DNA of 63,721 nt, the filler included, from Nemertoderma westbladi (lineage: Eukaryota; Animalia; Xenacoelomorpha): the NCBI GenBank assembly GCA_032718475.1. It is 3 parts of 3 records of this genome, joined end to end, with 100 filler letters (N's around TTAATTAATTAA, not from the genome) between each part and the next. Parts side by side here need not be neighbours in the genome. Positions count along the whole stretch, not along the records: positions 31,949 to 59,762 come from JAUCBJ010003129.1; 2 more parts are not named here. One strand, given 5' to 3'. This document shows positions 18,144-63,721 of this stretch, piece by piece. Below the pieces are notes generated by a model. It saw nothing but the letters and a program-made list of their open reading frames with translations, was not told the origin of the DNA and did not search any database. Each line of letters starts with the position of its first letter. The stretch's first letter is position 1. The translations under genes were made by a program, and so were the position numbers.

Positions 18144-18221
18144 AACATTATCTTGGATTATGATCACATCCGGTGATTCAAGATTTACTTTACTAGTTAT
18201 TATCAATTGAATTTTTAATTA

Positions 18222-20330: not shown

Positions 20331-20538
20331 CTGGTGAGAAAATAATAAAACATTGTGACATTATCATTAAAAATTATACTTGAACTGCATTACAATCTAA
20401 TGTGCTATAATTGTAGGTTATATCTTTATAATGTAATGAAATAAAATAAATTATTATTATTATTAATAATATTAATGGAAAATTTGTGCCTTTGAATGCA
20501 ATCCAGACCTCACTAACAACAATAAATACAAATCCACT

Positions 20539-23604: not shown

Positions 23605-23789
23605 ATATCTTCTAGCGCACGACTCAACCCAAAATCCGCGACTTTACAGACGAGACACTCGTTCACTAATATATTCCGAGCAGCCAGATCTCTGTGAACG
23701 TATCCGATATCAGAGAGGTATTGCATACCGTAGGAAATTCCTCGCAACATTCCAACCAGTTGAATCGCTGTAAATCCCCCATCATTTGC
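23580..23789 (-). CDS. Eph: Eph kinase exon (HRD, DFG, activation loop)
   Basis: [13 protein letters not shown]...[22 protein letters not shown] joins GGKVPLRW of the next exon, matching the Eph YTTxGGK motif. Confidence 0.95.
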
Positions 23790-25218: not shown

Positions 25219-25403
25219 CTTAAATATAAACATAAAATAAAAATGAGAGATGTAAGAGAAAGATAGTAAAATTACTTTATTTCAACTTAATATATTCGCG
25301 TATCACTTTATATCATTGGTATCACATTCATATTGTTTGTCTGAGCTATTTTGCAATGATATTCCATGACAGTATAACAGGGCGCTAATCTGCCCTATAA
25401 GGG

Positions 25404-28400
25404 GTGCATTCTATAATATTTGTAGGACACTAACAGCACCTATGGTGCATTCTATAATATTTGTAGGACACTAACCTGCACCTATTGTGCTCTCTATAAT
25501 ACTTGTAGGACACAAACCAGCACCTATGGTGCTCTCTATAATATTTGTAGGAAACAAACCAGCACCTATGGTGCTCTCTATAATACTTGTAGGACACAAA
25601 CCAGCACCTATGGTGCTCTCTATAATACTTGTAGGACACAAACCAGCACCTATGGTGCTCTCTATAATACTTGTAGGACACAAACCAGCACCTATGGTGC
25701 TCTCTATAATACTTGTAGGACACAAACCAGCACCTATGGTGCTCTCTATAATACTTGTAGGACACAAACCAGCACCTATGGTGCTCTCTATAATACTTGT
25801 AGGACACAAACCAGCACCTATGGTGCTCTCTATAATACTTGTAGGACACAAACCAGCACCTATGGTGCTCTCTATAATATTTGTAGGAAACAAACCAGCA
25901 CCTATGGTGCTCTCTATAATACTTGTAGGACACAAACCAGCACCTATGGTGCTCTCTATAATACTTGTAGGACACAAACCAGCACCTATGGTGCTCTCTA
26001 TAATACTTGTAGGACACAAACCAGCACCTATGGTGCTCTCTATAATACTTGTAGGACACAAACCAGCACCTATGGTGCTCTCTATAATACTTGTAGGACA
26101 CAAACCAGCACCTATGGTGCTCTCTATAATACTTGTAGGACACAAACCAGCACCTATGGTGCTCTCTATAATACTTGTAGGACACAAACCAGCACCTATG
26201 GTGCTCTCTATAATACTTGTAGGACACAAACCAGCACCTATGGTGCTCTCTATAATATTTGTAGGAAACAAACCAGCACCTATGGTGCTCTCTATAATAC
26301 TTGTAGGACACAAACCAGCACCTATGGTGCTCTCTATAATACTTGTAGGACACAAACCAGCACCTATGGTGCTCTCTATAATACTTGTAGGACACAAACC
26401 AGCACCTATGGTGCTCTCTATAATACTTGTAGGACACAAACCAGCACCTATGGTGCTCTCTATAATACTTGTAGGACACAAACCAGCACCTATGGTGCTC
26501 TCTATAATATTTGTAGGACACAAACCAGCACCTATGGTGCACTCTATAATACTTGTAGGACACAAACCAGCACCTATGGTGCTCTCTATAATACTTGTAG
26601 GACACAAACCTGCATCTATGGTGCTCTCTATAATACTTGTAGGACACAAACCAGCACCTATGGTGCTCTCTATAATACTTGTAGGACACAAACCAGCACC
26701 TATGGTGCTCTCTATAATACTTGTAGGACACAAACCAGCACCTATGGTGCTCTCTATAATACTTGTAGGACACAAACCAGCACCTATGGTGCTCTCTATA
26801 ATACTTGTAGGACACAAACCTGCACCTATGGTGCTCTCTATAATACTTGTAGGACACAAACCAGCACCTATGGTGCTCTCTATAATACTTGTAGGACACA
26901 AACCAGCACCTATGGTGCTCTCTATAATACTTGTAGGACACAAACCAGCACCTATGGTGCTCTCTATAATACTTGTAGGACACAAACCAGCACCTATGGT
27001 GCTCTCTATAATACTTGTAGGACACAAACCTGCACCTATGGTGCTCTCTATAATATTTGTAGGACACTAACCAGCACCTATGGTGCTCTCTATAATACTT
27101 GTAGGACACAAACCAGCACCTATGGTGCTCTCTATAATATTTGTAGGACACAAACCAGCACCTATGGTGCTCTCTATAATACTTGTAGGACACAAACCAG
27201 CACCTATGGTGCTCTCTATAATACTTGTAGGACACAAACCAGCACCTATGGTGCTCTCTATAATACTTGTAGGACACAAACCAGCACCTATGGTGCTCTC
27301 TATAATACTTGTAGGACACAAACCAGCACCTATGGTGCTCTCTATAATACTTGTAGGACACAAACCAGCACCTATGGTGCTCTCTATAATATTTGTAGGA
27401 CACAAACCAGCACCTATGGTGCACTCTATAATACTTGTAGGACACAAACCAGCACCTATGGTGCTCTCTATAATACTTGTAGGACACAAACCAGCACCTA
27501 TGGTGCTCTCTATAATACTTGTAGGACACAAACCTGCATCTATGGTGCTCTCTATAATATTTGTAGGACACTAACCTGCACCTATGGTGCTATCTATAAT
27601 ATTTGTAGGACACAAACCAGCACCTATGGTGCTCTCTATAATATTTGTAGGAAACAAACCAGCACCTATGGTGCTCTCTATAATACTTGTAGGACACAAA
27701 CCAGCACCTATGGTGCTCTCTATAATACTTGTAGGACACAAACCAGCACCTATGGTGCTCTCTATAATACTTGTAGGACACAAACCTGCATCTATGGTGC
27801 TCTCTATAATACTTGTAGGACACAAACCAGCACCTATGGTGCTCTCTATAATACTTGTAGGACACAAACCTGCACCTATGGTGCTCTCTATAATACTTGT
27901 AGGACACAAACCAGCACCTATGGTGCTCTCTATAATACTTGTAGGACACTAACAGCACCTATGGTGCACTCTATAATATTTGTAGGACACTAACAGCACC
28001 TATGGTGCACTCTATAACACTTATAGGACACAAACCAGCACTTATGGTGCACTCTATAATATTTGTAGGACAGAAACCAGCACCTATGGTGCACTCTATA
28101 ATATTTGTAGGACACTAACAGCACCTATGGTGCACTCTATAACACTTATAGGACACAAACCAGCACTTATGGTGCACTCTATAATATTTGTAGGACACAA
28201 ACCAGCACCTATGGTGCTCTCTATAATACTTGTAGGACACAAACCAGCACCTATGGTGCTCTCTATAATACTTGTAGGACACAAACCAGCACCTATGGTG
28301 CACTCTATAACACTTATAGGACACAAACCAGCACTTATGGTGCACTCTATAATATTTGTAGGACACAAACCAGCACCTATGGTGCACTCTATAATACTTG

Positions 28401-30562
28401 TAGGACACAAACCAGCACTTATGGTGCACTCTATAATATTTGTAGGACACAAACCGGCACCTATGGTGCACTCTATAATATTTGTAGGACACAAACCAGC
28501 ACCTATGGTGCTCTCTATAATACTTGTAGGACACAAACCAGCACCTATGGCGCAATACACAAGGCACAGAAAGAGTCCCGACTCAAACAGACTACAGCGG
28601 CCAAGAATGCAGTTAAGGCTGCATCTAGGTCCCTGAACATGCAGTACTCTGTTAATCTACAGGAGCTAATAAACCAACAGGTTGATGCCATCAATGATGC
28701 TGACGACAGCAGGCAATCATCCCAGGCATGGAAATCGATCAACTTGCTTACTGGGCGGAAAAGCCAACCAACCACCAAGGTTAAGGCTGAATCACCAGCC
28801 AATCGCCTCAATGGTTGGAAGGCCCACTTTGAAAAGCTCCTCAATAATGACAGGGTATTGCCTGATAACTTTATAGAAGTAAAAGTGTCTGAGTCTGTAC
28901 TCCCAGATATTCCCATTGGTGATATCTCCTTTGCAGAAGTGAAGGATGTTGCAAAGAGCATTAAGACCAATCGTGCCAGTGGAGTAGATGGTGTTCCCCC
29001 TGAGGTCTTTAAAATACCTGAGTGTTTAAAGCTCATCTATCCCATCATAGTAGACATGTACCGAACAACAAGAGTCCCACAAGAAATGAAAACAAATAAG
29101 TTGGTGCCAGTTCCCAAGAAGGGCAACCTAACACTCTATGGTTCTTTTCGGGGAATCTCATTGATCTCGATTGCTGCAAAGCTATACAATAGATTCTATT
29201 AAATCGCATCAGGGATCCCATTGAGAGACTGCTCCGTGGAAATCAGAATGGGTTCCGTAAAGGTCGTGGGACCATGGAGCCCATATTGGCATTTAGAAGG
29301 ATAATTGAAGAATTATCAAAAAAGAAAGACAGGCATCTGGCTGTTATCTTTGTTGACTTTTTCAAGGCCTTTGATTCAGTCTCTCGCTCACGTATGTTCA
29401 GCATACTTTCATTATATGGGATTCCTGATGAAATTATTGCAGCAATCAGATCAGTATACGATGGTTCGACAACATTTGTGTCTACTGTTGACGGTGACAC
29501 AGAACCATTTGAAGTGTTATGGGGTGTCCTCCAGGGAGACACACTGGCACCATTCTTGTTCATAATTGTTGTTGACTATGTTCTACGCATGTCCTTAGAT
29601 CATCATAATGATGATGGGGTGATGATAACTCCACCTACTGGCTCCAGAAGTCGAGGAAAGCCTGCCAATTACCTAACTGATCTAGACTTTGCTGATGACT
29701 TAGGAGTACACTCAGAATCACTAGAGGAGCCCAACGGCTCCTCAGCTCATTCGAACATGCTGCTTCTAGTGTTGGTCTTTTTATTAACTCCAGAAAGACC
29801 AAAATTTTGACAGTTAACTAGTCCTCAGAAAGACTCTGATTTCTGTTACCTGGGATCATGGATCCGGAAGTCAGGTGAGGACCTTGGAATACGTAAGGGA
29901 AAGGCATGGGCAGCCTTGAATAGGCTTTCCAGGATTTGGAAGTCACCGAGAATTAATCGGAAACTTAAGGTCCGATTATTTAGAGCAGCTGTAGTTCCAG
30001 TACTCCTCTATGGGAGTCCATGCTGGGCTCTAACTGCTGAGGACACCAAATCTCTGGATGGCACATTCACAAGAATGCTACGCCGGGTTCATTGTGTCAA
30101 GTACAATGCACACATCTCCAACCAGACAATATATAACATTGGAGGTGTCTCATTGGTTCCCCCAAGCTTGACACTAGAACAAAATCGCCTCCGCTTTGCA
30201 GGACATTGCTTTCGCCGTGAGGACCAGTCAGTGCTTAATCTTGTACTTTGGCAGCCTCATGGAGTGAATAAGCATGGTGGACAGCCCATGACTTTCTTGA
30301 GACGCATCTTAAAGGACACTGCCCTTGAAGATGCGGATGATCTAGCGAATATCATGGGTGATAGGGAGTTGTGGTGGTGCAATTTTGTCGATAAGCCGGC
30401 ACAGCATTCTTAAAAATGCAGCTGCAATGCAGCATGCCGATCCTAGTAGTATGGCGCAATCTATACACTTATCGATTGTAGGACACAAACCAGCACCTAT
30501 GGTGCTCTCGATAAAAACTTGTGGATTTTAGGACACTTACCTGCACCTATGGTGCACTCTAT
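25404..30562 (-). repeat. 42-bp donor-derived array (~75 copies at 25404-28556, plus 2-3 copies at 30460-30562)
   Basis: Unit ATAGAGAGCACCATAGGTGCTG|GTTTGTGTCCTACAAGTATT versus the true junction ATAGAGTGCACCATAGGTGCAG|GTAAGTGTCCTAA. Confidence 0.95.
28557..30449 (+). mobile_element. 5'-truncated, frameshifted RTE LINE (same family as 21502-22843)
   Basis: RT split over ORFs starting at 28639, 29274 and 29916. Tail cctagtagt. TSD tatggcgcaat at 28546-28556 and 30450-30460. Confidence 0.95.
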
Positions 30563-31848: not shown

Positions 31849-31948
31849 NNNNNNNNNNNNNNNNNNNNNNNNNNNNNNNNNNNNNNNNNNNNTTAATTAA
31901 TTAANNNNNNNNNNNNNNNNNNNNNNNNNNNNNNNNNNNNNNNNNNNN
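31849..31948. other. Artificial contig linker N-TTAATTAATTAA-N
   Basis: Six-frame-stop spacer centred in Ns, identical to the one at 59763. Confidence 0.95.
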
Positions 31949-42315: not shown

Positions 42316-44436
42316 TTAGAGCCAGAAATGACAGGTAACTGGATCCATTCTGTAATCTGTCATAACCGGTCGATTGGCTGCGGGAAGGGTGTGAGGGAAG
42401 GTGGGTCTGGTATGGACCATGGGACCGGGGTTGTTATCCCTGTGGAAATCGATGCAGAAGGTATCCTCATCCGAGAAGTCGTCGCAATCAAGCTCGCAGT
42501 CGCATAGTTGCTCCGGTTGAATGCACTGTCCGTCGTTGCAGGTAAAACCTTCGCAGAACTCGATGGGTTCGGGTTTGGTGGGCAGCTCCCCGGTCGTCGT
42601 ATGGGTGGGTGGTTTGTTGTAGATGTTGCCCCCTTGAGCTCCGTTGAAGATGTTTCCTCCTTGAGCTCCGTTGAAGATGTTGCCCCCTTGAGCTCCGTTG
42701 AAGATGTTGCCCCCTTGAGCTCCGTTGAAGTTATGTCCGGTGGGTCTGTATTCGCAGATAAGACTTTCATCAGACATGTCACCACAATCGTCCAAGCTGT
42801 TACACAGGTAGTCTTTGTGCAGACACTTTCCGTTGTTGCACCGGAAATCGTTGGGATGACACACTTTGGCTTGCTGGATCAGCTCCACCTGTCTGCACAT
42901 GGTCCCCTCGTCCGATCTGTCCTCGCATTGGTAGTAGCCGTCGCACAGACAGATTCCGGGAACGCACTGCCCGTTGTCGCATCGGAACTCATCCTCGGTG
43001 CAGGTCTCAACGATAATCGGTCGCTCGAGATTCGCCGGGGGGTAGCAGAAGGAGGCTTCGTCGGAGGAGTCGTCGCAGTTGGGGAATCCGTCGCAGACGC
43101 GGTCCAACGCGAGGCATTGGGCGCCGGTGGAGCAGCGGAACTGGTTGGAGAGGCACTCGGGCGGGGTGGGGACGGCTTCCACGATCCTCGGGGGCGGCAG
43201 TTCCGGTTGCGGTCGGGGCGGGGGCGGCGCGTGGCAGTGCAGCTCGTCGGAAGAGTCCAAACAATCCACAACGTTGTCGCACCAGTTGTTGCTCCGGATG
43301 CACTCGCCGTTGTCGCAAGCTCGCTCGATTGTCGGTGTGCAGGTTCGGCCTCGGCATTGCGGCCCTTCGTCCGTGTAGTCCCCGCAATCGTTGAATCCGT
43401 CGCAGACCACGTCGACGCTGACGCAAACCTCGTTGCCGCAACTGAAGTGTAGGATGGGGTCGCAAGGGGTCTTGATCTCCTGGGGGGTGGGGCACCAGGT
43501 ACCTTCGTCACTGCCGTCCCCGCAATCGTTGAGTAAGTCGCACACCATCGCGTGTTCGATGCACAGGTTGTTGTTGCACTTGAACATTCCTTCGGCGCAG
43601 GTCGCGATGAGCTTCTCGGGGCAGCCGACCTCGTCAGAGTTGTCTTTGCAGTCGTAGAAACCGTCGCAGTGGTAGGCCTCCTGGATGCATCGCGGATGGC
43701 CGTAGGAGCACTGGAATTCGTTGCGGGTGCAGCTACAGAACATCTCGTCACTGCCGTCCAGACAATCAGAGATCGAGTTGCAAACGTTGTTCTCTAGGAT
43801 ACAACCACCGGTGCTGCACGCGAACATTCCCTGGGCGCATCCCGGAAGTCTGTGGGAAATTAAATAGTTTTATTATTAATTGATAAAAGTAAAATTAATT
43901 TGAATGATTATATTTTAAAAGTTAATAAAATCATAGTGCCACTGGTAAGTGCAATATAAAAATGTATAGTTATTAAAGTGGTGTGAAAGATTTATAGTGA
44001 AAGAAATTCATACAAAATAAAATTAAAATACATTAAATTTCATGGTCAGCAATATAAAAGTGTATGCAATATAGCTAATAATTAATGTACTATATTTGTA
44101 CTAGAATTGTCAGACAACCAATAGTAACAGAACAAACCTTGGGGGTTCGGGTTGGGGTACCGGGTTGTCTTTGGAACAAACTTCGTCGCTCTCGTCCCCA
44201 CAGTCGTTGTATCCGTCGCAGATAACGTGCAACGGAACGCAAGCTCCCGAGGCGCAGGTGAATGTAGACGCGTCCGTGGTGCAGACAACGAACATTACCC
44301 CGTTGCCCCGGATAGGTAGACCGCGACCGGTTGTGTACACTACTTGGGCGTCCATTCCCTCTCCGACGTGGATGTGCGGCCGGTTGCTAACGTGGGCCTG
44401 GGCAGCCGCCACAAACAACAAAATCAACAACCACAT
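42316..44436 (-). CDS. Secreted 10xLDLa protein copy 3, inverted (exons 44138-44436 and 42316-43849)
   Basis: Exon 1 encodes the same peptide as copies 1 and 2. Exon 2 is intact with a diverged C-terminus. Confidence 0.9.
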
Positions 44437-46069: not shown

Positions 46070-46261
46070 CGCTCTCCCGTACGGGCTCCATCTTCATGTG
46101 TAAGTCGGCCTGTTGGGCGCAAGTTACGTGGAAGGCTGTGTAGCAGTTGGCTTTGTGGCACTGGATGCACGCCCCTATTCCTCGTTGCCGGCAAATATAG
46201 CAGTTCAGTTTCCATCGGGCAGGAGGAATTGCTTTAATGCTGTCCACTGGTTCTAGAAACA
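46070..46261 (-). CDS. BRPF1: BRPF-family exon (PHD2 of the PZP domain)
   Basis: [52 protein letters not shown]. Confidence 0.95.
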
Positions 46262-48483
46262 CTGTAAGTAAAGGGAATTGCTTTAATGCTGTCCACTGGT
46301 TCTAGAAACCCTGTAAGTAAAGGGAATTGCTTTAATGCTTCCACTGGTTCTAGAAACACTGTAAGTAAAGGGAATTGCTTTAATGCTGTCCACTGGTTCT
46401 AGAAACACTGTAAGTAAAGGGAATTGCTTTAATGCTGTCCACTGGTTCTAGAAACACTGTAAGTAAAGGGAATTGCTTTAATGCTGTCCACTGGTTCTAG
46501 AAACACTGTAAGTAAAGGGAATTGCTTTAATGCTGTCCACTGGTTCTAGAAACACTGAAAGTAAAGGGAATTGCTTTAATGCTGTCCACTGGTTCTAGAA
46601 ACACTGTAAGTAAAGGGAATTGCTTTAATGCTGACCACTGGTTCTAGAAACACTGTAAGTAAAGGGAATTGCTTTAATGCTGTCCCCTGGTTCTAGAAAC
46701 ACTGAAAGTAAAGGGAATTGCTTTAATGCTGTCCACTGGTTCTAAAAACACTGTAAGTAAAGGGAATTGCTTTAATGCTGTCCACTGGTTCTAGAAACAC
46801 TGTAAGTAAAGGGAATTGCTTTAATGCTGTCCACTGGTTCTAGAAACACTGAAAGTAAAGGGAATTGCTTTAATGCTGTCCACTGGTTCTAGAAACACTG
46901 TAAGTAAAGGTAATTGCTTTAATGCTGTCCACTGGTTCTAGAAACACTGAAAGTAAAGGGAATTGCTTTAATGCTGTCCACTAGTTCTAGAAACACTGTA
47001 AGTAAAGGGAATTGCTTTAATGCTGTCCACTGGTTCTAGAAACACTGTAAGTAAAGGGAATTGCTTTAATGCTGTCCACTGGTTCTAGAAACACTGAAAG
47101 TAAAGGGAATTGCTTTAATGCTGTCCACTGGTTCTAGAAACACTGTAAGTAAAGGGAATTGCTTTCATGCTGTCCACTGGTTCTAGAAACACTGTAAGTA
47201 AAGGGAATTGCTTTAATGCTGTCCTGGTCCAATGGTTCTAGAAACACTGCAAGTAAAGGGAATTGCTGTAATGCTGTCCACTGGTTCTAGAAACACTGTA
47301 AGTAAAGGGAATTGCTTTAATGCTATCCACTGGTTCTAGAAACACTGTAAGTAAAGGGAATTGCTTTAATGCTGTCCTGGTCCAATGGTTCTAGAAACAC
47401 TGCAAGTAAAGGGAATTGCTGTAATGCTGTCCACTGGTTCTAGAAACACTGTAAGTAAAGGGAATTGCTTTAATGCTGTCCCCTGGTTCTAGAAACACTG
47501 AAAGTAAAGGGAATTGCTTTAATGCTGTCCACTGGTTCTAGAAACACTGTAAGTAAAGGGAATTGCTTTAATGCTGTCCACTGGTTCTAGAAACACTGTA
47601 AGTAAAGGGAATTGCTTTAATGCTGTCCACTGGTTCTAGAAACACTGAAAGTAAAGGGAATTGCTTTAATGCTGTCCACTGGTTCTAGAAACACTGTAAG
47701 TAAAGGTAATTGCTTTAATGCTGTCCACTGGTTCTAGAAACACTGAAAGTAAAGGGAATTGCTTTAATGCTGTCCACTAGTTCTAGAAACACTGTAAGTA
47801 AAGGGAATTGCTTTAATGCTGTCCACTGGTTCTAGAAACACTGTAAGTAAAGGGAATTGCTTTAATGCTGTCCACTGGTTCTAGAAACACTGAAAGTAAA
47901 GGGAATTGCTTTAATGCTGTCCACTGGTTCTAGAAACACTGTAAGTAAAGAGAATTGCTTTAATACTGTCCACTGGTTCTAGAAACACTGTAAGTAAAGG
48001 GAATTACTTTAATGCTGTCCACTGGTTCTAGAAACACTGTAAGTAAAGGGAATTACTTTAATGCTGTCCACTGGTTCTAGAAACACTGTAAGTAAAGGGA
48101 ATTGCTTTAATGCTGTCCACTAGTTCTAGAAACACTGTAAGTAAAGGGAATTGCTTTAATGCTGTCCACTGGTTCTAGAAACCCTGTAAGTAAAGGGAAT
48201 TGCTTTAATGCTGTCCACTGGTTCTAGAAACACTGTAAGTAAAGGGAATTGCTTTAATGCTGTGCACTGGTTCTAGAAACACTGTAAGTAAAGGGAATTG
48301 CTTTAATGCTGTCCACTGGTTCTAGAAACACTGTAAGTAAAGGGAATTGCTTTAATGCTGTCCACTGGTTCTAGAAACACTGTAAGTAAAGGGAATTGCT
48401 TTAATGCTGTCCTGGTCCAATGGTTCTAGAAACACTGTAAGTAAAGGGAATTGCTTTAATGCTGTCCACTGGTTTCAGAAACA
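46225..48483 (-). repeat. 49-bp acceptor-spanning array (~46 copies)
   Basis: Unit ctttacttacag|TGTTTCTAGAACCAGTGGACAGCATTAAAGCAATTCC equals the 3' splice site plus the first 37 nt of the exon. Confidence 0.95.
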
Positions 48484-48571
48484 CCAGTCCGTTGTAAATT
48501 ACGAGTTTATGTCAAGAGTTCATGTGTACGAGTTAATATGACGCGTACGATAAACAAATCTGACGTCATTA

Positions 48572-48781
<210 letters not shown>

Positions 48782-49080: not shown

Positions 49081-50182
49081 GCACATTACACAACTCCCTA
49101 CAACTCACTTGATGTACTGCCAGGTTACACAACTCCCTATAACTCACTTGATGTACTGCCAGGTTACACAACTCCCTCAACTCACTTGATGTACTGGCAC
49201 CTTACACAATTCCCTACAACTCACTTGATGTACTGCCAGGTTACACAACTCCCTACAACTCACTTGATGTACTGCCAGGTTACACAACTCCCTACAACTC
49301 ACTTGATGTACTGCCAGGTTACACAACTCCCTACAACTCACTTGATGTACTGCCAGGTTACACAACTCCCTACAACTCACTTGATGTACTGCCAGGTTAC
49401 ACAACTCCCTACAACTCACTTGATGTACTGCCAGGTTACACAACTCCCTACAACTCACTTGATGTACTGCCAGGTTACACAACTCCCTACAACTCACTTG
49501 ATGTACTGCCAGGTTACACAACTCCCTACAACTCACTTGATGTACTGCCAGGTTACACAACTCCCTACAACTCACTTGATGTACTGCCAGGTTACACAAC
49601 TCCCTACAACTCACTTGATGTACTGCCAGGTTACACAACTCCCTACAACTCACTTGATGTACTGCCAGGTTACACAACTCCCTACAACTCACTTGATGTA
49701 CTGCCAGGTTACACAACTCCCTACAACTCACTTGATGTACTGCCAGGTTACACAACTCCCTACAACTCACTTGATGTACTGCCAGGTTACACAACTCCCT
49801 ACAACTCACTTGATGTACTGCCAGGTTACACAACTCCCTACAACTCACTTGATGTACTGCCAGGTTACACAACTCCCTACAACTCACTTGATGTACTGCC
49901 AGGTTACACAACTCCCTACAACTCACTTGATGTACTGCCAGGTTACACAACTCCCTACAACTCACTTGATGTACTGCCAGGTTACACAACTCCCTACAAC
50001 TCACTTGATGTACTGCCAGGTTACACAACTCCCTACAACTCACTTGATGTACTGCCAGGTTACACAACTCCCTACAACTCACTTGATGTACTGCCAGGTT
50101 ACACAACTCCCTACAACTCACTTGATGTACTGCCAGGTTACACAACTCCCTACAACTCACTTGATGTACTGCCAGGTTACAC
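49081..50182 (-). repeat. 39-bp in-frame donor-spanning array (~28 copies)
   Basis: Unit TGTAACCTGGCAGTACATCAA|GTGAGTTGTAGGGAGTTG (CNLAVHQ|VSCREL). Confidence 0.95.
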
Positions 50183-50330
50183 ATGTCGCAGAACAGAATT
50201 ACGTTGCTGTTTGCGCACTCCCCGTCGTTGCATATAGCACAAACTGCGTCTTCGTCTATAACAGATTGCTCGGCTTTACCGTTGGTACAAAACTCAAAGT
50301 AAGATTCCTTCTCGAGGCGGTCCATCAATC
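50161..50330 (-). CDS. BRPF1: BRPF-family exon (EPC-I end and PHD1 start)
   Basis: [12 protein letters not shown]...[32 protein letters not shown]. Confidence 0.95.
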
Positions 50331-50647: not shown

Positions 50648-50750
50648 CTTCAAATAAATCCTGACTAACTAATGACAGTTTATTTTCTTGTCGTTCCTCG
50701 TTCATCATCTCCAACCAGGCGTGGTCCTCCTCGTCCATATCATATTCAAC
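50648..50750 (-). CDS. BRPF1: BRPF-family exon (EPC-I)
   Basis: Manual translation gives VEYDMDEEDHAWLEMMNEERQENKLSLVSQDLFE. Confidence 0.92.
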
Positions 50751-53700
50751 CTAACGTAGTAATAACAATATATTCAACCTAACGTAGTAATAACAATATA
50801 TTCAACCTAACGTAGTAATAACAATATATTCAACCAAACGTATTAATATCAATATATTCAACCTAACGTATTAATAACAATATATTCAACCTAACGTAGT
50901 AATAACAATATATTCAACCTAACGTATTCATAACAATATATTCAACCTAACGTATTAATAACAATATATTCAACCTAACGTATTCATAACAATATATTCA
51001 ACCTAACGTATTAATAACAATATATTCAACCTAACGTAGTAATAACAATATATTCAACCTAACGTATTAATAACAATATATTCAACCTAACGTATTAATA
51101 ACAATATATTCAACCTAACGTAGTAATAACAATATATTCAACCTAACGTATTAATAACAATATATTCAACCTAACGTAGTAATAACAATATATTCAACCT
51201 AACGTATTAATAACAATATATTCAACCTAACGTAGTAATAACAATATATTCAACCTAACGTATTAATAACAATATATTCAACCTAACGTATTCATAACAA
51301 TATATTCAACCTAACGTATTAATAACAATATATTCAACCTAACGTAGTAATATCAATATATTCAACCTAACGTATTAATAACAATATATTCAACCTAACG
51401 TAGTAATATCAATATATTCAACCTAACGTATTAATATCAATATATTCAACCTAACGTAGTAATATCAATATATTCAACCTAACGTATTAATATCAATATA
51501 TTCAACCTAACGTATTCATAACAATATATTCAACCTAACGTATTAATAACAATATATTCAACCTAACGTATTAATAACAATATATTCAACCTAACGTATT
51601 AATAACAATATATTCAACCTAACATATTAATAACAATATATTCAACCTAACGTATTAATAACAATATATTCAACCTAACGTATTAATAACAATATATTCA
51701 ACCTAACGTAGTAATAACAATATATTCAACCTAACGTATTAATAACAATATATTCAACCTAACATATTAATAACAATATATTCAACCTAACGTAGTAATA
51801 TCAATATATTCAACCTAACGTATTAATATCAATATATTCAACCTAACGTATTAATAACAATATATTCAACCTAACGTATTAATAACAATATATTCAACCT
51901 AACGTATTAATATCAATATATTCAACCTAACGTATTAATAACAATATATTCAACCTAACGTAGTAATAACAATATATTCAACCTAACGTATTAATAACAA
52001 TATATTCAACCTAACGTATTAATAACAATATATTCAACCTAACGTAGTAATAACAATATATTCAACCTAACGTATTAATAACAATATATTCAACCTAACG
52101 TATTAATAACAATATATTCAACCTAACGTATTAATAACAATATATTCAACCTAACGTATTAATAACAATATATTCAACCTAACATATTAATAACAATATA
52201 TTCAACCTAACGTATTAATAACAATATATTCAACCTAACGTATTAATAACAATATATTCAACCTAACGTATTAATAACAATATATTCAACCTAACGTATT
52301 AATAACAATATATTCAACCTAACGTATTAATAACAATATATTCAACCTAACGTAGTAATAACAATATATTCAACCTAACGTATTAATAACAATATATTCA
52401 ACCTAACGTAGTAATATCAATATATTCAACCTAACGTATTAATATCAATATATTCAACCTAACGTATTAATAACAATATATTCAACCTAACGTATTAATA
52501 ACAATATATTCAACCTAACGTATTAATAACAATATATTCAACCTAACGTATTAATATCAATATATTCAACCTAACGTATTAATATCAATATATTCAACCT
52601 AACGTAGTAATATCAATATATTCAACCTAACGTATTAATATCAATATATTCAACCTAACATATTAATAACAATATATTCAACCTAACGTATTAATAACAA
52701 TATATTCAACCTAACGTAGTAATATCAATATATTCAACCTAACGTATTAATATCAATATATTCAACCTAACGTATTAATAACAATATATTCAACCTAACG
52801 TATTAATAACAATATATTCAACCTAACGTATTAATAACAATATATTCAACCTAACGTAGTAATAACAATATATTCAACCTAACGTATTAATAACAATATA
52901 TTCAACCTAACATATTAATAACAATATATTCAACCTAACGTAGTAATAACAATATATTCAACCTAACGTAGTAATAACAATATATTCAACCTAACGTAGT
53001 AATAACAATATATTCAACCTAACGTAGTAATAACAATATATTCAACCAAACGTAGTAATAACAACATATTCAACCTAACGTAGTAATAACAATATATTCA
53101 ACCTAACGTAGTAATAACAATATATTCAACCTAACGTAGTAATAACAATATATTCAACCTAACGTAGTAATAACAATATATTCAACCTAACATATTAATA
53201 ACAATATATTCAACCTAACGTATTAATAACAATATATTCAACCTAACATATTAATAACAATATATTCAACCTAACGTAGTAATAACAATATATTCAACCT
53301 AACGTAGTAATAACAATATATTCAACCTAACGTAGTAATAACAATATATTCAACCTAACGTATTAATAACAATATATTCAACCTAACATATTAATAACAA
53401 TATATTCAACCTAACATATTAATAACAATATATTCAACCTAACGTAGTAATAACAATATATTCAACCTAACGTAGTAATAACAATATATTCAACCTAACG
53501 TATTAATAACAATATATTCAACCTAACGTATTAATAACAATATATTCAACCTAACGTATTAATAACAATATATTCAACCTAACGTAGTAATAACAATATA
53601 TTCAACCTAACGTAGTAATAACAATATATTCAACCTAACGTAGTAATAACAATATATTCAACCTAACGTAGTAATAACAATATATTCAACCTAACGTAGT

Positions 53701-55922
53701 AATAACAATATATTCAACCTAACGTATTAATAACAATATATTCAACCTAACGTATTAATAACAATATATTCAACCTAACGTATTAATAACAATATATTCA
53801 ACCTAACGTATTAATAACAATATATTCAACCTAACATATTAATAACAATATATTCAACCTAACGTATTAATAACAATATATTCAACCTAACGTAGTAATA
53901 TCAATATATTCAACCTAACGTATTAATATCAATATATTCAACCTAACGTATTAATATCAATATATTCAACCTAACGTATTAATAACAATATATTCAACCT
54001 AACGTATTAATAACAATATATTCAACCTAACGTATTAATAACAATATATTCAACCTAACGTAGTAATAACAATATATTCAACCTAACGTATTAATAACAA
54101 TATATTCAACCTAACATATTAATAACAATATATTCAACCTAACGTAGTAATAACAATATATTCAACCTAACGTAGTAATAACAATATATTCAACCTAACA
54201 TATTAATAACAATATATTCAACCTAACATATTAATAACAATATATTCAACCTAACGTAGTAATAACAATATAATCAACCTAACGTAGTAATAACAATATA
54301 TTCAACCTAACGTAGTAATAACAATATATTCAACCTAACGTAGTAATAACAATATATTCAACCTAACGTAGTAATAACAATATATTCAACCTAACGTAGT
54401 AATAACAATATATTCAACCTAACATATTAATAACAATATATTCAACCTAACGTATTAATAACAATATATTCAACCTAACGTAGTAATAACAATATATTCA
54501 ACCTAACATATTAATAACAATATATTCAACCTAACGTATTAATAACAATATATTCAACCTAACGTATTAATAACAATATATTCAACCTAACGTATTAATA
54601 ACAATATATTCAACCTAACGTATTAATAACAATATATTCAACCTAACGTATTAATAACAATATATTCAACCTAACGTATTAATAACAATATATTCAACCT
54701 AACGTAGTAATAACAATATATTCAACCTAACGTAGTAATAACAATATATTCAACCTAACGTAGTAATAACAATATATTCAACCTAACGTAGTAATAACAA
54801 TATATTCAACCTAACGTAGTAATAACAATATATTCAACCTAACATATTAATAACAATATATTCAACCTAACGTATTAATAACAATATATTCAACCTAACG
54901 TAGTAATAACAATATATTCAACCTAACGTAGTAATAACAATATATTCAACCTAACGTAGTAATAACAATATATTCAACCTAACGTATTAATAACAATATA
55001 TTCAACCTAACGTATTAATATCAATATATTCAACCTAACGTATTAATAACAATATATTCAACCTAACGTATTAATAACAATATATTCAACCTAACGTATT
55101 AATAACAATATATTCAACCTAACGTATTAATAACAATATATTCAACCTAACGTAGTAATAACAATATATTCAACCTAACGTATTAATAACAATATATTCA
55201 ACCTAACGTAGTAATAACAATATATTCAACCTAACGTATTAATAACAATATATTCAACCTAACGTATTAATAACAATATATTCAACCTAACGTAGTAATA
55301 ACAATATATTCAACCTAACGTATTAATAACAATATATTCAACCTAACGTATTCATAACAATATATTCAACCTAACGTATTAATAACAATATATTCAACCT
55401 AACGTATTCATAACAATATATTCAACCTAACGTATTAATAACAATATATTCAACCTAACGTATTAATAACAATATATTCAACCTAACGTAGTAATAACAA
55501 TATATTCAACCTAACGTATTAATAACAATATATTCAACCTAACGTATTCATAACAATATATTCAACCTAACGTATTAATAACAATATATTCAACCTAACG
55601 TATTCATAACAATATATTCAACCTAACGTATTAATAACAATATATTCAACCTAACGTATTAATAACAATATATTCAACCTAACGTATTAATAACAATATA
55701 TTCAACCTAACGTATTCATAACAATATATTCAACCTAACGTATTAATAACAATATATTCAACCTAACGTATTAATAACAATATATTCAACCTAACGTATT
55801 AATAACAATATATTCAACCTAACGTATTAATAACAATATATTCAACCTAACGTATTAATAACAATATATTCAACCTAACGTATTAATAACAATATATTCA
55901 ACCTAACGTAGTAATAACAATA
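50743..55922 (-). repeat. 28-bp acceptor-spanning satellite (~185 copies, 5.2 kb)
   Basis: Unit tattgttatta(c/a)tacgttag|GTTGAATA equals the 3' splice site plus the first 8 nt of the VEYDMD exon. Confidence 0.95.
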
Positions 55923-56133
55923 TAATATACTGACTTATAACATTAGCGTTCAAACATTTATCAAGACAACGACGACAAAAGACGGGTCCACTAATTATAT
56001 CTTTGTAAAATTAAAGCAAATACATACTTCCTATTAATGCTACAATATGAATAGTGCGGATGTCGTTTAATATTTCATTAGATATTTGAAGTAATTTAAT
56101 TAGCCACCATGGACATTATTTGACATATTACAC

Positions 56134-59064
56134 CGCCCATGTGAAGTTTCCCAGGATTCTCTTTCACAGCGAAAAAAAAAAACACATCGAAACGGAATTT
56201 GGCCCATTCACTATCATTAGGCAACTTTCGCATTTTCGACCATCTTCCCAAACAGTCTGGGAAACTTCACATGGGGGTATTTTGGTATTCACGTGCTGCG
56301 CGAAGTCCTCTTTTTTTGAGAGGGATGGTCTGTTGATCAGTCGGTCGTCGGTGAGTGAGAAGGTGGGCGGGTGGGTGGGTGGGAAGGGAAGGTGGATGGG
56401 AATGTGGGAAGATGGGATGTGGGAAGATGGATGGAAATGTGGAAAGATGGGAATGCGGGAAGGTGGATGGGAATATGGGAAGGTGGGTGGGAATGTAGGA
56501 AGATGGGAATGTAGGAGAATGGGAATGTGGGAAGGTGGGTGGGGATGTGGGAAGGTGGATGAGAATGTGGGAAGATGGGAAGGTGGATGGGAATGTGGGA
56601 AGGTGGGTGGGAATGTAGGAAGATGGGAATGTGGGAAGATGTGAATATGGGAAGATGGGAATGTGGGAATGTGGGAAGGTGGATGGGAATGTAGGAAGAT
56701 GGGAATGTGGGAAGGTGGATGGGAATGTGGGAAGATGGGATGGTGGATGGGAATGTGAGTGGGAATGATGAAGATGGGAATGTGGGAAGATGGGAATGGG
56801 GAATGTAGGAAGATGGGAATGTAGGAAAATGGGGATGTCGGAAGGTGGATGGGAATATAGGAATATGGGAAAGTGGGAAGTTGTATGGGAATATGGGAAG
56901 GTGGATCGGAATGTAGGAAGATGGGAATGTGGATGGGAATGAGGAAGATGGGAATGTGGGAAGATGGGAATGTGGAAAATGGGAATATGGGAAGTTGGAT
57001 GGGAATGTAGGAAGATTGGAATGTGGGAAGATGGATGGGAATGTGAGAAGGTGGGTGGGAATGAGGAAGATGGGAATGTGGGAAGGTGGATGGGAATGTA
57101 GGAAGATTGGAATGTGGGAAGATGGATGGGAATGTGAGAAGGTGGGTGGGAATGAGGAAGATGGGAATGTGGGAAGATGGGAATGTGGAAAATATAAATA
57201 TAGGAAGGTGGATGGGAATGTAGGAAGATGGAAATGTGAGAAGGTGGATGGGATTGTGGGAAGGTGAGAATTTGGGAAGATGGGAAGGTAGATGGCAATG
57301 TAGGAAGGTGGATGGGAATGAGGGAAGATTGGAAGGTGGGCGCGAATGAGGAAGATGGGAATGTCGGAAGATGGGAATGTGGGAAGATGGATGGGAATGT
57401 AAGAAGGTGGGTGGGAATGTGGGAAGATGGATGGGAATGTGAGAAGGTGGGTGGGAATGAGGAAGATGGAAATGTGGGAAGATGGGAATGAGGAAGAAGA
57501 TTGGAATGTGGGAAGATGGATGGGAATGTGAGAAGGTGGGTGGGTATGAGGAAGGTGAGAATGTGGGAAGATGGGAAGGTAGATGGGAATGTAGGAAGGT
57601 GGGAAGGTGGATGGGAATGTGGGAAGATGGTAAGGGGGATAAGAATGTGGGAAGATGGGAATGTGGGTAGGTGGATGGGAATGTAGGATGAGGGAATGTG
57701 GGAAGGTGGATAGGAATGGGGGAAGGTGGCTGTGTGGGAAGATGGTAAGGTTGATGGGAATGTGGGAAGATGTGAATAACAATGTTTATTGTTTGGATAG
57801 AAAAGCCCGCTGCCGTAACCTGCTCCTTTCCCTCAATTGGTAAGTAACAACAACGTTTATTGTTTTGTCTAGAAAAGACCGCCTCTGTAACCTACTCCTT
57901 TCCTTCAATTGGTAGATAACAACACAACAATGTTTAGTGATTTGGTTAGAAATGTCAGCTGCTGTGACTGCTCCTTTCTCTTAATTGGTAGGTAAAAACA
58001 ACGTTTATTGTTTTGTTTAGAAAAGCCGCTTCTGTCACCTATACCTTTCCTTCAATTTGTAGATAACAACGTTTGTTTCGTTTAGAAAAGCCCGCCTCTG
58101 TAACCTGCTCCTTTCCTTCAATTGGTAACAATATCGTTTATTGTTTTGGTTCGAAAAGCCCGCCTCTGTAACCTGCTCCTTTCCTTAATTGGTAACAATA
58201 TCGTTTATTGTTTTGGTTAGAAAAGCCCGCCTCTGTAACCTGCTCCTTTCCCTCAATTGGTAACAACAACAACGTTTATTGTTTTGGTTAGAAAAGCCCG
58301 CCTCTGTAACCTGCTTCTTTCCCTCCATTGGTAGGTAAAAATAACGTCATTCCCATATTTCCACATTCCCATCTTCCTAGATTCCCATCTTCCTACATTC
58401 CCACCCATCTTCCCACATTCCCATCCACCTTCCCATCTTCCTACATTCCCATCTTCTTACATTCCCACCCACCTTCCCACATTCCTACATTCACACCCAT
58501 CTTCCCACATTCCCATCCACCATCCCACATTCCCATCCACTTTCCCGCATTCCCATGCACCTTCCCATCTTCCTACATTCCCACCCACATTCCCATATTC
58601 TTACATTCCCACCCACCTTCCCATCTACCTTCCCACCTTCCTACATTCACACCCATCTTCCCACATTCCCATCTTCCTAGATTCACATCTTCCTACATTC
58701 CCACACATCTTCCCACCTTCCTACATTCCCATCCACCTTCCCGCATTCCCATCTTCCTACATTGAGACCCACCTTCCCATCCATCTTCCCATATTCCTAC
58801 ATTCACACCCATCTTCCCACATTCCCATCCACCTTCCCGATTCCCACCCATCTTCCCACATTCCCATCCACCTTCTCATCGTTCTACATTACCACCCACC
58901 ATCCCACATTCCCATCTTCCTACATTCCCATCTTCCCACAATCCCACCGACCAACCAACCGACCGTCCGTCAGACCAACCGAGCCACCCACCCACCCCTT
59001 TAAACAAATATTGACCCTTTTTATTTCGACTTTCCTGGGCACTCTGGGAAAGGTCACATGGGCC
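56134..59064. mobile_element. Foldback-like element: TIRs, inverted G-rich and C-rich arms, central ~60-bp repeats
   Basis: Ends GCCCATGTGAAGTTTCCCAG / CTGGGAAAGGTCACATGGGCC. GGGAAT-rich arm at 56360-57775, CCCATT-rich arm at 58349-59000, spacer repeats at 57776-58345. Confidence 0.7.
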
Positions 59065-59089
59065 AATTGCACGGATGTTAAACACTTAC

Positions 59090-59226
59090 TTCGTCATCCA
59101 GTTGTATGTCCGTTTTCGCGACGTGTCTGTAGTACTCAACAGGCCGCTCTCCGATCAACGGGAGTTTTATTGGGCTCTCAAGAAGTCGATATTGTGGCTC
59201 CGGCACACGGGACTGCTTGGGATCCC
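59090..59226 (-). CDS. BRPF1: BRPF-family exon (start of EPC-I; gene 5' end lies beyond the contig)
   Basis: Manual translation gives RPVEYYRHVAKTDIQLDDE, which joins VEYDMD in phase 0. Confidence 0.85.
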
Positions 59227-59762
59227 CTAAAAGTACAAGATATTAATCCATAATCATTTATTGACCAGTTACTTTGCCGCAATGACCATAATTGATATAG
59301 TCCATATATATATTTCCTTACATAGGCTACATTAGAGATAAGTGATGACAACAGACACAATATTATTATCAGACATACACGATGCCTCAGTTAAACTGAA
59401 ATATTCAGTTGTTCACACAATGAAAGCGTGACCTTGACTCCAACGAATTAATGGTTAAACCTAATCGTTTAACTACACCTGCATTACTAACCTAAACCTA
59501 ATATGATAAGGCTTATTTGCCCTTATCAGAGACAACTACAACAGTAACTGCTGATCACCTTTAAGATAAATCAACCTGTTGTACTTTTGGATATTCACAT
59601 AGAGCAAAAATTAATATAATTTTAGCACAAAAAGACAATCTGTTTTAGTAGTTTCCCTAATAATATGTCGAGGGATAAGTGGCTGGCGAAGATTTCTCGC
59701 ATGCGAAGTATTACTGCGAACGAGCCGATATAAATATAATTAATATAATTGAAACTGCATCT

Positions 59763-59862
59763 NNNNNNNNNNNNNNNNNNNNNNNNNNNNNNNNNNNNNN
59801 NNNNNNTTAATTAATTAANNNNNNNNNNNNNNNNNNNNNNNNNNNNNNNNNNNNNNNNNNNN
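59763..59862. other. Artificial contig linker N-TTAATTAATTAA-N
   Basis: Same spacer as at 31849. Confidence 0.95.
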
Positions 59863-61014: not shown

Positions 61015-63721
61015 TTATTCAGAAGGATAAGGAGTTAAGTTCCCCCAGGTCGGCCCGCATTTAACTTTAACAATAAGTTTAACACTGAGTTCTAGAACAT
61101 TTTCCATCTCATTTCTAACTATTTCCGCTAATCTAGACAAAGAATCCTTCCTAACCTCGTAAACTAACTCATCGTGCATATTCAGCACCAACCTAACCAG
61201 ACCGTTAGAACATAAATCCCTAAGGTTGTTATCGATACGAACCATAGCGAGTTTAACTAAGTCTGCCGCACTGCCTTGGACCCTGGTGTTAACCGATTGT
61301 CTCTCGGCGTGGCCCCTAACCGAGGGATTGCTGCTCCGGACGCCCGGAAGGTACCGCCTCCTACCGCAGAGAGTCGATACGAATCCGTTAGCGCGACAGA
61401 CTTCCACCGAGTCCACGATAAACCGATCCATAACCGCGAACCTCCGACGGAACTCGGTAATAAAGGCGGCGGCTTCCGACTGGGTCACCTCGAGTTTACC
61501 GGAGAGAGACGCGGAAGAAATCCCGTAGATAATCCCGTAACAGACGGACTTGGTCTGCTGACGCAACTCCTCGCTCACATCTGACTCCTCGACCCCCTTC
61601 CATCGACGCGCGATCTGTTTAAACACGTCCCTACCGGAGTTCAATACCTCTAGAAGTACCGGGTCCCCGGACAGATGAGCGATAACCCTCAACTCTATCT
61701 GGGAGTAATCAGCAGAGAGTAGAACGCAGTCGCGATGCGCGACGAAACACTGGCGGAGACTCACGCAGACAGACTGGTCTCCCTTCAGTCGTCTAGAACG
61801 GGCAGCCGTAGGGGCAGACTCATCGGGTACGATAGAGAAGTCCCGCAGGACCTGTTGTAGATGCGGGTTGCTACAGACAACGCGACCAGTAGCAGTGCAG
61901 AACGACCAATCAGGACGGACGCGCTCCATGTTCAACAGGTCGTCCATCTGTTTACACCTAATAACCGGTAGAATAATGTTGGTTAAGGCGGAATTAATTC
62001 GTCTCCATTCCAATAGAACCCCCGGGAACGGATGTAAACCAACCAGTTTTTCAACAACTTCCTTAGACGTGCTAAACTCTCGCGGAATTACTTTACTTTT
62101 TATACTTTTTATTTTATTATTCGATCCATTTGAATTACAATTTGTCGGTAAATTTAAATGTAAATAAAGTATTCTAGAAACTTCCATTGGGTTGTTTAAA
62201 TTAATCGGACCGACAAGAGAATAAGCTCGGGATTCTAGCGACGAGAGTTTATCTGTTAGTAAACTTCTCTGGAATTCACATTCGGCTCCGCTGACTCCAA
62301 TACCGGTTCTCTGTAAATCCGCTAGGAGGCGTAGCACTGGAGTCTCCACGTCAATAAATGTCTCGTATAGATTCTCGTCGTGCAACTTTGATGTAAGTTG
62401 GTTCATAAGATGGAAGGACAATACGGATTCTACTGAGGACCTAATTCTACCGGTAGATTGAGTAGATGTTAACCCCAACGACGATGTCGATTTATCTTGA
62501 GGGATCCGAGACTGATGTAGAATGTAGAACATAAGAGGTAGATGGTCGGTGATGAGAGAATGGAAGGTTTTCTCCTTGTCCGAAGGTTCCAACAACCAAC
62601 TCGCCAGTTTCGGATCCAGGCAAGGAGCTTCTATATAAACATCACAATATTCCATTAATATCAATAACTGCTCTTTAAAATCGAATACAATTTTAGAACT
62701 TCCAGAGATTGATAGAACATTTCGAACGGCCTTTAATCGTTCGGGAACTGACACAGGAATCCATTGTGGATCTTCCGGTCTAGAAATAACTCCAACTTGG
62801 TTAGAAACTACAGACTGTCTATTTACAAAGGAAATAAAGTATGAATCCAATGATCCCCAGGAAACAGCCATCCCAACAACCTTAGGTCCAACTTCATCTG
62901 CCTCTTTAGGGGCACAACGTTGACCTATTCGCACTCCCGAAATATTCTTCGGTTTTTCTACAGCTACAGACACAGAGTATAAATCCTTTGATTTCCACTC
63001 CTCAATAAACATGTCAAACAGTTCAGTATTATCAGCGACATCAATAATAGTAAATACTTCATCTGTGTTGACTGTGTTTGCAGTATTTATGTTGATATGA
63101 TTGGATTTTCGCCGTGAACGTGAGTAGGTTGATATCGGTGTCTCCGACAACTTAATTCTGGTAGCAAGGCATTTCAAAGGCGTCATTTTCGTAATTCCAT
63201 CACTAAAATAATTTATACCGGTAGTAGCATTATGTTGTACAGGAGATACAGACCCAGTAGTGAGTTCGGTATTCAAATGGGTTAATGTGTATTTACTGTC
63301 GCTTATATGAGTTTGAGAAATTTTAAAGTGGGAATTATTTTTCAATGACGCATTACAATTAACTTTAGATGATTCCAGACTTCCATTACGAACCGGTAAG
63401 ACATTGAGAGCAGACAATTCGCCTGGTGGTGTTGGTGGTATTAGACTGTCAGAGTCAGAATCAGAGAATGAATCACAAAAATCCTGTGTTTTTGGAGTTT
63501 CGAATAGAAGTTGAACTGAAGGATTTTCATTTTGGGTTTTAGATGAAACAATTTGTGATTTTTGACAGATTCCTGGAGTGGTGTTACGTGCAGAGAATTG
63601 CGAAGGACTGGAAATATCATCGGAGAAGACAGAATGTTTATAGGAAGTCTCACCCAGTTTCGGGGTGATACGGCAACACTGGAGTTTCGATGCTGGACTT
63701 TGGTCCGAAGGACTTTGGCAA
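61015..63721 (-). CDS. POLQ: DNA polymerase theta, C-terminal family-A polymerase region (frame open to the window edge)
   Basis: DPKLASWLLEP, GRIRSSVES, motif A ADYSQIELR, motif B RQQTKSVCYGIIYG, motif C MHDELVYE. I read no stop from 63418 to 63721. Confidence 0.92.
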   Translation of the reverse strand, partial: CQSPSDQSPASKLQCCRITPKLGETSYKHSVFSDDISSPSQFSARNTTPGICQKSQIVSSKTQNENPSVQLLFETPKTQDFCDSFSDSDSDSLIPPTPPGELSALNVLPVRNGSLESSKVNCNASLKNNSHFKISQTHISDSKYTLTHLNTELTTGSVSPVQHNATTGINYFSDGITKMTPLKCLATRIKLSETPISTYSRSRRKSNHININTANTVNTDEVFTIIDVADNTELFDMFIEEWKSKDLYSVSVAVEKPKNISGVRIGQRCAPKEADEVGPKVVGMAVSWGSLDSYFISFVNRQSVVSNQVGVISRPEDPQWIPVSVPERLKAVRNVLSISGSSKIVFDFKEQLLILMEYCDVYIEAPCLDPKLASWLLEPSDKEKTFHSLITDHLPLMFYILHQSRIPQDKSTSSLGLTSTQSTGRIRSSVESVLSFHLMNQLTSKLHDENLYETFIDVETPVLRLLADLQRTGIGVSGAECEFQRSLLTDKLSSLESRAYSLVGPINLNNPMEVSRILYLHLNLPTNCNSNGSNNKIKSIKSKVIPREFSTSKEVVEKLVGLHPFPGVLLEWRRINSALTNIILPVIRCKQMDDLLNMERVRPDWSFCTATGRVVCSNPHLQQVLRDFSIVPDESAPTAARSRRLKGDQSVCVSLRQCFVAHRDCVLLSADYSQIELRVIAHLSGDPVLLEVLNSGRDVFKQIARRWKGVEESDVSEELRQQTKSVCYGIIYGISSASLSGKLEVTQSEAAAFITEFRRRFAVMDRFIVDSVEVCRANGFVSTLCGRRRYLPGVRSSNPSVRGHAERQSVNTRVQGSAADLVKLAMVRIDNNLRDLCSNGLVRLVLNMHDELVYEVRKDSLSRLAEIVRNEMENVLELSVKLIVKVKCGPTWGNLTPYPSE

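Follow-up and report, generated by a model that had tools for sequence, protein, structure and literature searches.

A 28-bp minisatellite built from a 3′ splice junction occupies an intron of a peregrin-like gene in Nemertoderma westbladi

The window analysed here is a 63,721-nt stretch from the genome assembly of the xenacoelomorph Nemertoderma westbladi (GCA_032718475.1), and all coordinates refer to the whole of this stretch. A BRPF1/peregrin-like gene on its minus strand contains a predicted 8.3-kb intron that holds a tandem array of 28-bp units, and each unit is derived from the 3′ splice junction of the 103-nt exon that follows. The array is probably a mirage-type intronic minisatellite, in which 184 upstream acceptors are predicted to be bypassed and only the last one to be joined to the exon body. 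A first-pass annotation of the same DNA had treated the array as a one-off. The present analysis placed it in a described class, as one of six junction-copy arrays in the window. The five others show the same design: two neighbouring introns of the peregrin gene and three introns of an Eph-receptor-like gene hold arrays of their own junctions.

Tandem Repeats Finder (TRF) placed the array at 50742–55924, with a period of 28, 185.1 copies, 97% matches, 0% indels and a score of 9575. Units were counted off in 28-base steps along the minus strand, going upstream from the exon's first base at 50750. This gave 185 in-register units covering ~5.2 kb (50751–55930, minus strand), a copy number that refers to one assembled copy in one assembly. 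A pattern search allowing up to 3 mismatches returned 185 matches in the window, all within the array, and 0 were expected from 100 shuffles; at this tolerance the unit had no match in the window outside the array. AG closes 183 of the 185 units, and TG closes the remaining two. The sequence CGTTAG/GTTGAATA (the slash marks the splice junction) is exact in 166 units, which agrees with the first-pass description of ~185 units that nearly all keep it. The array composition is 49% purine and 23% G+C. At either end, boundary copies form the transition from the array to unique sequence; the one at the distal end is a unit that has half diverged. That no indel occurs in 5.2 kb speaks for a clean consensus.

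Ten unit variants were found, with 84, 52, 16, 12, 9 and 8 copies plus four singletons, and two of the four singletons alter the AG. The variable sites are few, the mean difference between units is 3.5% per site, and the variants are grouped in one- and two-unit blocks. Neighbouring units were identical in 71 of 184 pairs, compared with 54.8 in shuffles (8 of 5000 shuffles reached the observed value). Units two apart were identical in 78 of 183 pairs, compared with 54.4 in shuffles (0 of 5000). Unit cutting and shuffle statistics therefore bear out the earlier remark that the variation falls at few positions and occurs in runs. The variation listed at that time is present, but a common CG>TG change, which turns the unit end into TGTTAG in 16 units, had been missed. 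The blockwise order of the variants fits repeat turnover. A TTACTAC variant is common to the distal boundary unit and the three units next to the exon, and a derived variant dominates the interior. The shared edge variant appears to be the usual picture of array edges escaping homogenisation. An A-type unit would have spread in the array interior, with the ancestral B-type unit surviving at both ends.

Judged by homology, the gene that carries the array is a BRPF1/peregrin-like chromatin regulator, that is, a peregrin orthologue. Among the 120 matches listed per search, the database matches of the gene were peregrin/BRPF1 and BRD1 proteins. None of these listed matches, scored from candidates that share words with the query, appeared to come from the same species. 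The exons downstream of the 103-nt exon encode a PHD finger, a zinc knuckle and a PHD-like finger according to Pfam. Over the peregrin exons as a whole, a crinoid protein was the best match at 66.6%, and amphioxus, sea star, acorn worm and spiders were at ~60%. The exon-by-exon comparison gave no consistent best homologue, and for a less conserved exon the best identity was 81% among the 120 matches listed per search. A protein atlas comparison returned family-level matches only, and an exact 46-nt word from the exon was found in 0 stretches in metagenome contigs. The middle contig of the window (31949–59762, JAUCBJ010003129.1) carries the array together with every peregrin exon described here.

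The 103-nt coding exon (50648–50750, minus strand) encodes VEYDMDEEDHAWLEMMNEERQENKLSLVSQDLFE plus 1 nt, and its translation starts with VEYDMDEED. Colinearity with homologues places its acceptor at ttag/GTTGAA and its donor at AAG/gttaga. The end of the upstream exon (59090–59230, minus strand) reads ..VPEPQYRLLESP..EYYRHVAKTDIQLDDE and is followed by the donor GAA/gtaagt at 59089–59084, as located by tblastn with four peregrin homologues. This exon ends with ..QLDDE/gtaagt at 59090, and the homologues read ..Y(Y/F)RFIEKSxEELDEEVEYD.. (ELD(E/D)EVEYD). In tblastn with the four full-length homologues, a 12-residue spacing after YYR/YFR was common to the window protein and the homologues. The join of 59090 to 50750 (..LDDE/VEYDMDEED..) is supported by this protein colinearity, as is the phase-0 intron of 8,339 nt (50751–59089, minus strand), which holds the 28-bp array, two inverted GGGAATG-type blocks and a 71-bp array. 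The 103-nt exon could not begin further upstream in frame, because an in-frame TAG triplet directly precedes it. Reading frame and peregrin homology also uphold the earlier statement that the exon reads VEYDMDEED only after the last AG.

The 28-bp unit joins the last 19 nt of the intron (..CGTTAG) to the 9 nt with which the exon opens (GTTGAATAT, V-E-Y). The final unit lies directly against 50750 and is contiguous with the exon body; upstream of it the array continues without a gap. These are the features by which mirages are known. The repeat is head-to-tail with a minisatellite-sized unit (28 bp, in a reported range of 10–160 bp). The unit spans the exon-intron boundary with an exon edge and a splice signal, the exon being identified by peregrin homology. 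At one end of the array, the copy is the authentic junction itself and runs on into the remainder of the exon. Since VEY is conserved in peregrin homologues, the exon sequence is the ancestral one, and copying ran from the exon to the repeat. The seed likely arose from slippage or unequal exchange and was then expanded. The array is most likely without a function of its own.

The decoys share all of their upstream sequence with the real acceptor and differ from it downstream. The 103-nt exon is 64% purine and contains 3 GAR-type motifs, and its donor lies 103 nt downstream of the acceptor. GAR-type motifs number 0 in the 5,152 nt of the array, and GT[AG]AG does not occur in it. Because only the last AG adjoins the exon body and the donor, ordinary exon definition would separate the real site from the decoys, and the first-pass description of 184 equivalent acceptors does not hold. 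A first-come or 5′ to 3′ scanning rule would choose the wrong acceptor, because the decoys are transcribed before the real site. The earlier view that scanning alone can hardly explain the choice therefore points to a real puzzle.

The acceptor is likely picked by exon definition. U2AF would be stabilised at the nearest upstream pyrimidine tract and AG by splicing activators on the purine-rich exon and by U1 bound 103 nt further down, at the donor. By motif and distance, the candidate branch adenosines lie 9–12 nt from the AG of their own unit and 37–40 nt from the next AG, and because of these distances each candidate branch point would serve the AG of the following unit. The branch point used for the exon would then lie in the penultimate unit, ~37–40 nt upstream, and the AG of the penultimate unit, only 9–12 nt from the candidate branch adenosines, would be too close for use. 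Reading in from any of the 184 upstream AGs gives VEYIVITTLG and then a stop, with TGA at codon 11; the earlier note that 28 is not a multiple of 3 is correct. Since every upstream AG yields this stop, a slip to an upstream AG is predicted to be removed by nonsense-mediated decay. Exon definition, the distance dependence of enhancers, the minimum branch-to-AG distance and the decay rule are textbook models. RNA structure masking the decoys was considered and rejected: the fold of six units with the exon was less stable than those of shuffles (z = +3.39; each of the 200 shuffles was at least as stable). The Rfam scan found nothing in the 28-bp array.

Several points weigh against the use of the last AG as proposed. 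This use is predicted from protein homology and the reading frame, and the branch points are candidates proposed from motif and distance. Decoys 28–280 nt upstream would still give acceptable exon sizes with the same donor. The exclusion of the nearest decoys would require a proximity effect, because exon definition alone is not sharply excluding. Duplicated-site experiments, as cited in PMC1557585, conflict on which copy wins. In addition, fidelity rather than clean-up must carry most of the load, because the 39-bp and 36-bp donor arrays described below are in frame and open, where decay cannot remove slips.

Two further junction arrays lie in the peregrin gene. The next exon (170 nt, 50161–50330, minus strand; ..CNLAVHQ) encodes the first PHD finger, and its donor CAA/gtgagt is the first copy of a 39-bp donor-type array (49086–50183, minus strand). 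The 39-bp unit joins 23 nt of exon end to 16 nt of intron start, and the array holds 26 identical in-register CAA/GTGAGT sites. It is in frame, and its open reading frame (ORF) stays open for 327 codons. If a downstream copy were used, the PHD finger would gain 13-residue blocks, and decay would not remove the product. The following exon (190 nt, 48592–48781, minus strand; ECYGVPY...CFANT) belongs to the PHD/zinc knuckle region. The exon at 46070–46261 (minus strand; ..VRESG) encodes the PHD-like zinc finger, and its start is copied in a 49-bp acceptor-type array (46225–48484, minus strand). There the unit joins 12 nt of intron end (ctttacttacag) to the first 37 nt of the exon, and TRF counted ~46 copies. 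The exon-start 12-mer is kept in 41 copies, and TTTCAG replaces TTACAG in 9 of these 41. The acceptor of the exon (46261–46070) is the last copy of the 49-bp array.

Other repeats were also observed in the introns of the peregrin gene. The 8.3-kb intron contains degenerate GGGAATG-type repeat blocks at 56374–57777 and 58348–58948, which are inverted relative to each other. Their arms (up to 194 nt, 70–92% complementary) flank the 71-bp array of 8 copies, and in the pre-mRNA the blocks could pair and loop out ~0.6 kb. Inside the 12.8-kb peregrin intron (46069–33298), an ORF of 517 residues (42316–43869, minus strand) contains nine LDL-receptor class A repeats. Two more GC-rich segments at ~34–36 kb and 38–40 kb share the 27-bp coding repeat of this ORF, which suggests three nested gene copies.

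The Eph-receptor-like gene lies on a neighbouring contig, has fn3, EphA2_TM, tyrosine kinase and SAM domains, and contains donor-type arrays of 42, 36 and 25 bp. The 42-bp array (25403–30550, minus strand) follows the juxtamembrane exon (..IKIECTIGAG) and is split by a ~1.95-kb insert. Donors were scored as matches to the familiar consensus CAG/GTAAGT over 9 positions. In the in-frame 42-bp array the authentic donor alone reads CAG/GTAAGT (9/9), and CTG/GTTTGT (6/9) stands in 53 of the 70 copies. These weakened decoys may be a sign of selection against decoys where slips would stay in frame. The insert contains the only Rfam match at the gathering threshold, IRE_II at 30304–30334 (minus strand; 32.9 bits, cut-off 30, E = 0.017), which is probably a chance match. 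The 36-bp array (20538–21501 and 22844–23605, minus strand) joins the exon end ..VAQEYTTK to GTTAGT. A 1.3-kb insert encoding a reverse transcriptase (RVT_1, E = 6.9e-28) interrupts it, and the insert of the 42-bp array is also bordered by a related peptide stretch (LGSACCIAAAFLRMLCRL..), in the opposite orientation. The 25-bp array (19989–20195, minus strand) joins the kinase exon end (..YWDWANQD) to a GTAAGT donor in seven in-register copies, some of which have drifted to GTGAGT or CTGAGT.

Two more repeats were seen in the Eph-like gene. At 15819–15946 (minus strand), a 41-bp triplication covers the final 13 codons of the gene together with its stop (..KHNLHYSAQEETV, then stop); the boundary copied here is where the coding region ends, not a splice site. 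A 72-bp array (20 copies; 16707–18144, minus strand) lies between the exons for the kinase and SAM domains and has an open acidic frame, (DEEDPEETALNEREDDSSDVDSVT)n, for which Pfam gave no match. The count of six junction arrays excludes this 72-bp array and the 17-bp arrays.

Of the 10–11 high-identity non-coding arrays in the window, six have a junction as their exact starting point. After the arrays and inserts are subtracted, the ancestral introns measure ~119–603 nt, and the present introns measure 0.4–8.3 kb. At the ancestral lengths, a neutral seed of 25–49 bp straddles a junction with a probability of 0.09–0.57 (mean 0.28), and the excess has p = 0.03–0.05, a value that depends on our own classification of the arrays. 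The excess is marginal, and a high birth rate of minisatellites in short introns is enough for the count. The arrays could instead arise by a process tied to the splice junction, for example DNA breaks linked to transcription or to the spliceosome, or a step templated by RNA, and not by random seeding in short introns. The exact starts at junctions speak for such a process. With ancestral introns of 119–603 nt, however, p = 0.03–0.05 is weak evidence, and selection removes seeds inside exons and thereby inflates the share of junctions; we consider this origin unlikely. We are equally doubtful of a wider proposal, in which a transcription- or splicing-coupled process seeds the arrays at junctions and the 183 decoys are silenced by a strict exon-contiguity rule or by array-wide silencing. 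If it were true, the locus would be the strongest natural evidence against first-come-first-served choice of the 3′ splice site. Selection for a function is a quite improbable explanation of the 28-bp array. The array might act as a sink or landing pad for U2AF or hnRNP-type proteins, each unit carrying UAGG. It might also be a splicing delay timer, or it might regulate BRPF1 dosage in a decay-coupled way when a decoy is occasionally used. The AG is intact in 183 of 185 units, every decoy use brings a premature stop, and junction arrays are frequent in the window (6 of 10–11 non-coding arrays), marginally above the short-intron null (p 0.03–0.05). However, a young homogenised array with only 3.5% difference per site keeps its AGs without selection. 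Two of the four singleton variants hit the AG, with no sign of constraint on it, and junction arrays with unrelated units in unrelated genes fit a mutational by-product better.

The first-pass annotation had also raised recursive or stepwise splicing, in which the AG/GT junctions of the array would serve as ratchet points and the intron would be removed in pieces, with only transient use of the upstream AGs. AG/GT does stand at every unit boundary, the host intron is long (8.3 kb), and tandem AGGT sites in human UBC are reported to serve as both donor and acceptor (PMC10809524). The usable donor is the part of this proposal that did not stand. The regenerated donor TAG/GTTGAA matches 4/9 consensus positions, without +3R, +4A, +5G and +6T, whereas nine real or copied donors in the window match 6–9/9. 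No strong 5′ splice site directly follows the AG, the array is without GT[AG]AG, and the upstream exon end GAA adds no −1 G. A GTTAG located 4 nt upstream of the junction (5/9) might be bound weakly by U1, but its use would leave the frame disrupted. The weak regenerated donor would leave room for rare recursive events, yet it gives no support for them, and we regard recursive splicing as very unlikely. An assembly artefact is just as hard to credit. It would mean that the array is real but that its length is inflated or its position beside the exon misjoined. The assembly is fragmented, the window being three contigs joined by linkers; long near-identical arrays are difficult to assemble, and the length of this one is that given by the assembly. 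On the other side, the array, both flanking exons and the unique flanks are all in one contig (31949–59762), and the 185 units show 0 indels. The variant order is non-random, with one- and two-unit blocks as in real minisatellites, both array ends grade into unique sequence via boundary copies, and the same design is seen in the five other junction arrays of the window.

The contigs of the window are separated by two identical spacers at 31849–31948 and 59763–59862, each composed of 44 N, TTAATTAATTAA and 44 N. Adjacency across the spacers, such as the peregrin gene beside the Eph-like gene or POLQ, need not be real, because the contigs were joined artificially. The POLQ-like feature is a 901-residue ORF at 61015–63720 (minus strand), which is open at the window end and contains a family-A DNA polymerase domain in one uninterrupted exon. 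It is 40–44% identical to DNA polymerase theta of limpet, bivalve, skate, frog, centipede and sea urchin. At ~5200–10600 (minus strand), the same set of ORFs recurs every ~1.62 kb (6806–7006, 8429–8629, 10056–10256). This tandem macro-repeat looks like retroelement tail fragments.

The main value of the mirage-type array lies in its scale and cleanliness: 183 intact, sequence-identical acceptors stand in register before one essential exon. The same gene also has 26 identical in-frame donors and ~40 further acceptor copies. First-come and 5′ to 3′ scanning rules make predictions at the 28-bp array opposite to those of exon definition. Depending on RNA data, the locus is potentially a natural 185-fold acceptor competition experiment. 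The window also shows the inflation of introns, from roughly 120–600 nt to 0.4–8.3 kb, by a high birth rate of minisatellites. Gene predictors and frame-based readers can be misled by ORFs that run through in-frame donor arrays.

Mirages were reportedly first described by Canestro et al. in 2002. In amphioxus, splicing was reported to be undisturbed by mirages in Adh3, the globins BflGb6 and BflGb9, troponin C and PGBD5, and many mirage copies were reported to retain AG/GT (PMC3087553, PMC3902484). The edges of the clusters were described as escaping homogenisation (PMC3087553). As far as these descriptions go, the arrays of the window share with the amphioxus mirages a tandem, minisatellite-sized unit that spans the exon-intron boundary with a splice signal. 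Donor and acceptor sides both occur, one end copy is the working junction, the edges escape homogenisation, and several genes per genome are affected. The differences lie in scale and in evidence. The 28-bp array has 185 copies, compared with the 3–6 reported in BflGb6 and one extra in BflGb9. Normal splicing was shown by reverse transcription PCR in amphioxus, whereas here it is predicted from sequence alone. The host also differs, as the peregrin exons are ~60% identical overall to those of the sequenced Branchiostoma species.

The 37-bp variable number tandem repeat in intron 7 of human F7 is the closest donor-side parallel. The donor sits in its first unit, and of 5–9 identical donors the most upstream was reported to be the only one used (Borensztajn et al. 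2006, PMC1557585). In both systems, as reported for F7, the terminal unit is the authentic junction and identical pseudo-sites line the intron. Use of the exon-adjacent site alone is reported for F7 and predicted for the 28-bp array. The F7 repeat is on the donor side, has 5–9 sites, and the first transcribed site wins, whereas the 28-bp array is on the acceptor side, has 185 sites, and the last one is predicted to win. The 5′ to 3′ oriented scanning proposed for F7 cannot explain the 28-bp array, because the predicted site is the last transcribed. An authentic 5′ splice site in the first unit, followed by identical pseudo-donors, is absent from the 28-bp array and present in the 39-bp array. 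With its 26 identical CAA/GTGAGT donors, the 39-bp peregrin array is the direct counterpart of the F7 repeat as described.

The dual-specific AGGT sites of UBC also form a tandem array with AG/GT at every unit boundary (PMC10809524). As described in that source, the UBC repeats are whole in-frame coding monomers with stochastic donor and acceptor use, whereas the present unit is 28 nt long, out of frame, and contains a stop and a weak donor half (4/9). The 28-bp units are not in-frame coding modules, as 28 is not divisible by 3 and TGA stands at codon 11. In the Rogers model, introns are gained by tandem duplication across an AGGT proto-splice site (cited in PMC3087553), and mirages have been proposed as raw material for new introns and exons (PMC3087553). 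The 28-bp array agrees with the model, as cited, in that tandem duplication with a junction or AGGT makes extra splice-competent sites. It differs in that there is no hint here of a new intron or exon, and all decoy use would truncate the protein.

Turning to recursive splicing, known ratchet points are single conserved sites that regenerate a strong GTAAGT-like donor. Such sites share with the 28-bp array an acceptor placed directly beside a GT inside a long intron. In the array, however, TGAA follows the GT, and the sites are copies of recent origin. No acceptor-side junction array of comparable size was found in the literature searched, which was one limited paper collection. Compared with the systems described in these sources, the 28-bp array is an unusually large acceptor-side case of the known mirage or junction-minisatellite kind, and it involves no new mechanism.

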